This document shows positions 56,655 to 57,230 of a DNA stretch of 64,000 nt, piece by piece. The position numbers and the translations under genes are program-made. Position 1 is the first letter of the stretch, and every line of letters starts with the position of its first letter. The notes beneath the pieces are model-generated. The model saw only the letters and a program-made list of their open reading frames with translations. It was not told the origin of the DNA and made no database searches. This DNA comes from Escherichia phage NHEP29. The stretch lies in the sequence record PQ511150.1; one strand, given 5' to 3'.

Positions 56655-56868
56655 AAGGAATTTCCTCATCGGTGGCAAGGTCATATTCGACCAATTGGAT
56701 AGGCTCATTAATACCATATCCGCGTACAGTGATATCGGTTGACGGATATTTTCCAGTAATATCACCCGTTCTAAATGCTTCAATGAATGATTGCTCGCCT
56801 GAGCAACTAAACCAGGCGGCAAAACATTTTAAAACATCTTCAGACCCTTCTATAATCAATTTAGCCAT
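56644..56868 (-). CDS. hypothetical protein (74 aa)
   Basis: TAATG overlap with GrcA-like gene stop. Confidence 0.55.
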   Translation of the reverse strand: MAKLIIEGSEDVLKCFAAWFSCSGEQSFIEAFRTGDITGKYPSTDITVRGYGINEPIQLVEYDLATDEEIPYVD

Positions 56869-57230
56869 TATAGACTCTCAGTAAAGGTACGAGCGATAAC
56901 GTCGCGCTGCTGTTCTGGAGTCAGAGAGTTAAAGCGAACTGCATAACCGGATACACGAATGGTCAGCTGAGGATATTTTTCCGGATGCTTAACTGCATCT
57001 TCCAGAGTTTCACGACGCAGAACGTTAACGTTCAGGTGTTGACCACCTTCAATTTTAACTTTAGGTTGATGTTCAATTTCAATTTCACGGGCATTCAAAC
57101 CGTAGAAAATTTCCGGGTCTACAATAGCGTCTTCTTTAAAAGTCTTAGAGACAATAATCCGGGCTTGAGTACCGTCTTCAAAATAAATAGTGCCTTTATG
57201 TGCACCTTCAAGAATTTGATATGCTTTCAT
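56868..57230 (-). CDS. autonomous glycyl radical cofactor (GrcA/YfiD-like)
   Basis: 120 aa; C-terminal [44 protein letters not shown] matches E. coli GrcA glycyl-radical domain as remembered; GAGGT SD. Confidence 0.85.

Follow-up and report, generated by a model that had tools for sequence, protein, structure and literature searches.

Why does a lytic phage encode a small protein that ends in the glycyl radical domain of its host, and which enzyme would such a protein serve? These questions are raised by one open reading frame (ORF) of Escherichia phage NHEP29, of which we analysed a stretch of 64,000 nucleotides (sequence record PQ511150.1; hereafter the window). An earlier interpretation made from the letters and their ORFs (the sequence-only reading) had placed at 56868-57230 a phage-encoded autonomous glycyl radical cofactor similar to GrcA. 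This exact ORF is present on the minus strand (56868..57230); according to both the ORF listing and the sequence, it starts with ATG, spans 120 codons up to a TAA stop and encodes a protein of 13.8 kDa. Here, we refer to it as vs.6 or phage grcA.

The gene is part of a dense co-directional array in the order vs.8-vs.7-vs.6-vs.5-vs.4-regB, and its locus, between regB and denV, matches the annotations of RB69 and T4. A Shine-Dalgarno sequence, GAGG (57235..57238, minus strand), can be read 4 nt 5' of the ATG, where it overlaps the TGA stop of vs.7, and the stop of vs.6 in turn overlaps the ATG of vs.5 as TAATG. A promoter scan of 55500..59500 returned 10 promoter-like sites versus 12 expected from shuffled sequences, and no dedicated promoter was assigned to vs.6, which appears to be co-transcribed with the neighbouring genes. 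Terminator-like hairpins were somewhat commoner over 55500-59500 than in shuffles (6 versus 2.6 +/- 1.6); one of them lies inside vs.6 (57206..57189, minus strand) and is probably due to chance. No Rfam family was found at threshold over the whole 64-kb window. An antisense ORF of 88 aa (56985..57251, plus strand) was without a PHROG match and was treated as a shadow of the conserved vs.6.

The possibility of a pseudogene, which the sequence-only reading had left room for, was examined together with that of a chance ORF. The vs.6 frame is open throughout, and its length is shared by the counterparts in T4, RB69 and Klebsiella phages. In comparison with T4, dN/dS was 0.14 for codons 1-60 (hereafter the head) and 0.05 for codons 61-120 (the tail); over all phage comparisons it ranged from 0.05 to 0.36 for both halves, and stayed below 0.4 even against more distant phages. 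Thus, vs.6 is an intact gene under purifying selection, and both a pseudogene and a chance ORF are ruled out by the frame, the conserved length, the dN/dS values and the wide distribution of the gene.

The source phage is an RB69-like T-even phage of the genus Mosigvirus, and the ORFs around vs.6 are colinear with those of RB69 and T4, including by blastn against T4. At the nucleotide level the 363-nt gene is 98-99% identical to its counterparts in RB69, JS09, AV110 and many other phages, and the protein shares 112 of 120 residues (93%) with T4 Vs.6, which has the same length (120 aa), is likewise preceded by vs.7 and followed by vs.5, vs.4 and regB, and carries an E. coli-type tail with the same 5' boundary. 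Seven of the 8 substitutions between the two proteins fall in the head. The NHEP29 product also belongs to one 90%-identity cluster with UniProt P13316 (GRCA_BPT4, 'Autonomous glycyl radical cofactor'), and exactly the same protein is already found on 69 public contigs, with the UniRef name 'Autonomous glycyl radical cofactor, Mosigvirus'. Since the T4 genome has a single grcA-like locus, annotated as vs.6, this gene must be the 'Y06I' of Wagner et al. 2001. By sequence and gene order, therefore, vs.6 of NHEP29 is the Mosigvirus (RB69-like) ortholog of T4 vs.6, that is, of Y06I or GRCA_BPT4 (P13316). In a previous comparison of T4-like genomes, vs.6 was among the conserved ORFs common to all of them, with a Gly_radical match in six of six orthologs (Nolan et al. 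2006, PMC1524935). The protein matches phrog_1209 over its full length (residues 1-120 on profile positions 1-121, 9.1e-63), and 1591 phage records, from T4-like, T5-like as well as jumbo phages, contain homologs.

The gene family, the biochemistry of its T4 member and the name are already known: published work and databases have contained them since 2001, and both UniProt and RefSeq use GrcA. Annotation elsewhere is inconsistent. PHROGs v4 lists phrog_1209 as 'unknown function', and GenBank phage records often name the vs.6 homolog 'hypothetical protein', 'pyruvate formate-lyase', '2-ketobutyrate formate-lyase' or 'acetyltransferase'. The same 90% cluster includes members deposited as 'Escherichia coli' and 'Salmonella enterica' (on contigs of ~165-169 kb), as well as a 60-aa partial sequence deposited as 'Enterococcus faecalis' on a 410-nt contig. 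These bacterial-labelled members look like T-even phage contigs or contamination within bacterial assemblies.

The surrounding region is a fine-scale mosaic when T4 is compared with the RB69 type over 56.4-58.2 kb. Between blocks of 75-97% nucleotide identity, the segment at 57411-57540 (minus strand; end of vs.8 and start of vs.7) is only 38-50% identical to T4. A similar pattern was observed for vs.4, which lies two genes downstream of vs.6 (56388-56654, minus strand) and encodes an 88-aa protein beginning with MSIEDIK: its middle (about 56455-56570) shows 38-55% nucleotide identity to T4 and its flanks 70-80%. The vs.4 product matches Pfam Acb2_Tad1_hairpin (3.1e-17), a family of anti-CBASS/Thoeris cyclic-nucleotide sponges.

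As for the protein itself, its only Pfam domain is Gly_radical (PF01228; 67.3 bits versus a cutoff of 22.2, E 2e-18), which covers residues 60-101. The best match among solved structures is the E. coli autonomous glycyl radical cofactor 6owr (E 2e-42), followed by pyruvate formate-lyase (PFL; 3e-26). The tail (56871..57050, minus strand) corresponds to residues 68-127 of E. coli GrcA, and these last 60 residues, which had been described as near-identical to the GrcA/YfiD domain, are in fact identical at all 60 positions; against the C-terminus of PflB, 48 of 60 are identical. The motif RVSGYAV was confirmed at residues 92-98 (56937..56957, minus strand) from the sequence, the codon table and the alignment. 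R92, V93, S94, G95, Y96 and A97 are invariant in an alignment of 17 sequences comprising phage homologs, bacterial GrcA proteins and the PflB C-terminus, and the context of the glycine is thus conserved. The radical glycine, G95, is encoded by GGT at 56946-56948 and is equivalent to G102 of GrcA and G734 of PflB. Taken together, the Pfam match, the 6owr match and the tail show that the identification as a GrcA-like autonomous glycyl radical cofactor was right.

Over residues 22-120, BLASTP against E. coli GrcA gave 74 identities in 100 aligned positions (E 8e-53). The head (57051..57230, minus strand), a phage-type N-terminal half that is the counterpart of the disordered residues 1-60/67 of YfiD and contains ARIIVSKT, is far more divergent, although still alignable: only 18 of 60 residues (30%) are identical to the GrcA head, with the motifs AR.IV.K...ED and RE..E..P.V in common. 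Among phages, identity of the NHEP29 head was 88% to T4, 72% to a Klebsiella Jiaodavirus and 50% to jumbo phage SE_PL. Because of this divergent head, the match to the NCBIfam equivalog TIGR04365 (spare_glycyl) begins at residue 18 and reaches 159.1 bits, below the curated cutoff of 170, whereas E. coli GrcA itself scores 233.9. Therefore, we assign the vs.6 product to a phage subfamily of GrcA, in which the function of the T4 member has been validated; by the strict NCBIfam criterion it does not count as an equivalog of bacterial GrcA. The structural definition of GrcA, a glycyl radical domain that stands alone in a small protein of ~120-130 aa and has no catalytic barrel, nevertheless applies to it.

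Comparison with related proteins further delimits the family. E. coli GrcA/YfiD (PDB 6owr) is likewise a stand-alone protein of ~14 kDa with homology recognisable over the whole length, but the phage protein is 7 residues shorter in addition to the divergence of its N-terminal half, and is encoded in an early-region gene array of a lytic phage, while E. coli grcA is chromosomal, between ung and eamB. The C-terminal glycyl radical domain of PflB (residues ~696-759) has the same core around the glycine as the vs.6 tail; however, PflB is an enzyme of 760 residues, and the phage protein has neither its catalytic barrel nor its active-site cysteines. At the DNA level, too, the tail is nearer to grcA (96.7%) than to pflB (about 76%). 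The short GrcA2 and GrcA3 families (NF008341 and NF038360; 78-80 aa) share the glycyl radical domain (E 1e-27 and 5e-31), but lack the N-terminal half of ~60 residues, and the phage protein scores far below their cutoffs (95.7 versus 145 and 106.6 versus 158).

The similarity of the tail to E. coli grcA is even more striking in the DNA than in the protein. In the 180 nt that encode it, 174 are identical, and all 6 differences are synonymous; the T4 tail has 2 synonymous differences and one non-synonymous (R73H). The corresponding dS values to E. coli grcA were 0.146 for NHEP29 and 0.046 for T4, compared with 0.36 between the grcA tails of E. coli and Citrobacter and 1.02 between those of E. 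coli and Salmonella. Constraint on synonymous sites was rejected as the cause of the nucleotide identity, since grcA of Citrobacter and Salmonella differs by 13 and about 25 synonymous changes, respectively, although the 60 residues encoded are identical or almost so. In a neighbour-joining tree of the 180-nt tails, E. coli, another Escherichia sp., T4, RB69 and NHEP29 were grouped together with a bootstrap value of 99.5%. On the 5' side of codon 61, DNA similarity to grcA collapses and the composition of the gene becomes phage-like (GC3 of 0.23 for the head and 0.37 for the tail). When phage records were searched with E. coli grcA, 638 had a match of at least 95% nucleotide identity; among the 34 of these matches that were listed, all started at grcA nt 199-202 (32 of 34 exactly at nt 200) and 33 extended to the grcA stop.

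A recent Escherichia origin of the tail is thus well supported, vs.6 is a DNA-level chimera, and conversion of the radical domain by host DNA is suggested. In other T4-like genera (Karamvirus CC31, Krischvirus and the Klebsiella phages), the tails are just 75-83% identical to E. coli. Those of the Klebsiella phages carry the RRETLLDAVEHPEKY variant, as does the aligned Salmonella GrcA, and not the E. coli variant, and in one Klebsiella phage the GC3 of the tail was 0.62 versus 0.23 for the head. The simplest reading involves two steps: a phage-lineage grcA was gained early and is common to several phage families, and its radical domain later gave way to Escherichia grcA DNA, either in the ancestor of the T4/RB69 group or repeatedly within it; the tracts of T4 and NHEP29 have their boundaries in common and no shared derived substitutions, which fits a single as well as a repeated transfer.

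With regard to function, the two proteins YfiD and Y06I, both of ~14 kDa, are the only validated spare parts (PMC8683613). According to the account of Wagner et al. 2001 given in PMC8683613, both of them receive a glycyl radical from the PFL-activating enzyme (PFL-AE) and restore activity to oxygen-cleaved PFL in vitro. [quoted passage not shown] The sequence-only reading had suggested that the phage protein could serve as a spare part when host PFL is damaged by oxygen, and precisely this was demonstrated in vitro for the T4 ortholog; the NHEP29 protein differs from that ortholog at 8 residues, 7 in the head. The literature searched yielded no in vivo phenotype for vs.6 mutants. Potential targets are present in the host: in each of 5426 complete E. 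coli genomes the gene matches two or more places (median 3; the best match listed is grcA), and in E. coli K-12 pflA adjoins pflB.

It is most likely, with a probability of roughly 85% by our own estimate, that the vs.6 product repairs host PFL in the manner of Y06I and keeps acetyl-CoA/ATP and formate flowing during infection. PFL produces formate in addition to sustaining this energy supply. In E. coli cells infected under anaerobic or microaerobic conditions, host PFL that has been cleaved by oxygen at Gly734 would be bound by the 13.8-kDa protein. Host PflA, the radical-SAM PFL-activating enzyme that recognises RVSGYAV, would take hydrogen from G95, and the C-terminal 60 residues, being the same as those of host GrcA, would stand in for the lost PFL C-terminus and bring PFL activity back. 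In this way, the phage could sustain the output of acetyl-CoA/ATP and formate when oxygen intrudes, and the formate would serve as the reductant of its own class III ribonucleotide reductase (RNR), NrdD. Because the tail is identical to that of host GrcA, the surfaces that PFL meets and the RVSGYAV that the activase meets should be those of the host protein. On the other hand, the divergent head, a region that in YfiD matters for binding and activation of cleaved PFL, implies that the phage protein may differ from host GrcA in binding or regulation. For NHEP29 itself, we infer the same repair of PFL, its importance in vivo and the supply of formate to NrdD.

The two genes of the anaerobic RNR are indeed present in NHEP29. 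The class III RNR gene nrdD is located at 39246..41063 (minus strand; Pfam NRDD, 6.5e-171, plus Gly_radical) and nrdG, which encodes its activase, at 38779..39249 (minus strand; Pfam Fer4_12 / Radical_SAM). The statement that the cofactor is encoded alongside NrdD/NrdG is loose: all three genes are on the same strand within the 64-kb window but are not adjacent, nrdD and nrdG being located downstream in the direction of transcription at a distance of about 16 kb, or roughly 30 ORFs. The NrdD C-terminal domain has the Pfam Gly_radical match in common with the vs.6 product, but the two proteins show no pairwise similarity: BLASTP of the vs.6 product against NrdD of the same phage gave no significant match, the best (E 2.6) being away from the glycine loop. 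The loop also differs. At the C-terminus of NrdD, a cysteine-rich segment (CFTCGS...CSVCGE) precedes the loop RRTCGYLG, whereas the vs.6 domain has RVSGYAV, the PFL type, and is without such a segment.

In some other phages the genes are closely linked. Aeromonas phage PX29 has the order nrdD-nrdG-vs.6-nrdC-nrdH (L005:1359-4660), with overlapping vs.6 and nrdG ORFs, and in Salmonella jumbo phage SE_PL the grcA homolog is located between nrdD and nrdG (L006:2177-4824). Thus, two unrelated phage lineages carry a grcA homolog inside an anaerobic RNR cluster. In T4, RB69 and NHEP29, vs.6 and nrdD/nrdG are unlinked, and in T5-like STG2, Vibrio phage KIT04 and Aeromonas phage 31 the grcA homolog lies among tRNA genes. 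Nevertheless, in each lineage examined in this respect (NHEP29, PX29, SE_PL and T5-like STG2), phage grcA co-occurs with phage nrdD. The placement next to nrdD and nrdG elsewhere suggests a metabolic link, because the formate made by PFL is the reductant of class III RNR. We read phage grcA and the nrd genes as a shared anaerobic module, the link being metabolic and not physical. Characterised class III RNRs obtain both of their reducing equivalents from formate (PMC4493059).

The same gene arrangements could be explained in other ways. NHEP29 encodes both NrdD and NrdG, and spare parts for glycyl radical enzymes other than PFL have been speculated on (PMC8683613); together with the clusters of PX29 and SE_PL, this would fit a protein that replaces the C-terminus of phage NrdD after cleavage by oxygen at its glycyl radical, which had been named as an alternative target in the sequence-only reading. 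We consider it very unlikely. The best BLASTP match to the phage's own NrdD is off the glycine loop, the cysteine-rich end of NrdD with RRTCGYLG is unlike the vs.6 product, the genes are 16 kb apart in NHEP29, and the tail is of the host GrcA/PflB type and tracks the host sequence down to the nucleotide, as expected of a part that fits PFL. A second possibility retains PFL as the repaired enzyme and assigns the insertion of the radical to phage NrdG, instead of or besides host PflA, so that the phage would be independent of host activase levels. The tight linkage of grcA homologs to nrdG in PX29 and SE_PL, and the company of phage nrdD in all four lineages, would be consistent with it. However, E. 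coli PFL-AE activates T4 Y06I in vitro, as reported in PMC8683613, the RVSGYAV motif is of the PFL type and not of the NrdD type, and the genes are apart in T4, RB69 and NHEP29 and set among tRNA genes in the T5-like, Vibrio and Aeromonas-31 phages. Such an activation by NrdG is therefore improbable.

The head invites a different kind of explanation, in which the protein is a decoy or modulator that redirects host fermentation, either by occupying PFL or by competing for PFL-AE with host GrcA or with PFL. [quoted passage not shown] But T4 Y06I reconstitutes PFL activity, as reported in PMC8683613, and a decoy would have no need of a tail, including the radical glycine, that is kept identical to the functional host domain, so there seems little chance that this explanation applies. 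Finally, the 97% identity of the 3' 180 nt to E. coli grcA might simply indicate a non-functional scrap of captured host DNA, a pseudogene or passenger. The probability of this is close to negligible, given the intact frame, the length shared with T4, RB69 and Klebsiella phages, dN/dS well below 1 in both halves, the Shine-Dalgarno sequence with translational coupling to the neighbouring genes, and conservation in 1591 phage records.

Returning to the repair of host PFL as the preferred function, we also considered why the gene should be a chimera. One tentative possibility, which we hold to be less likely than not, is that the chimera is maintained: a phage head would be combined with a tail that is periodically overwritten by host grcA and hence fits the current PFL and activase, the pay-off being formate for the phage RNR. 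In such a case the N-terminal half might be old and phage-specific, shared with T5-like, jumbo, Aeromonas and Vibrio phages. We infer both the recurrence of conversion and the formate rationale here; the pay-off in formate, if real, would account for the presence of the gene inside the nrdD-nrdG clusters of other phage lineages. No mention of the evolution or chimeric origin of phage grcA was found in the literature searched, although it may have been published elsewhere.

In summary, vs.6 is a neat example of a lytic phage with a repair part for a host enzyme. The chimeric origin of the gene and its linkage to nrd genes in other phages are modest leads, and the idea that PFL repair may secure formate for anaerobic dNTP synthesis offers phage geneticists a lead that can be tested.
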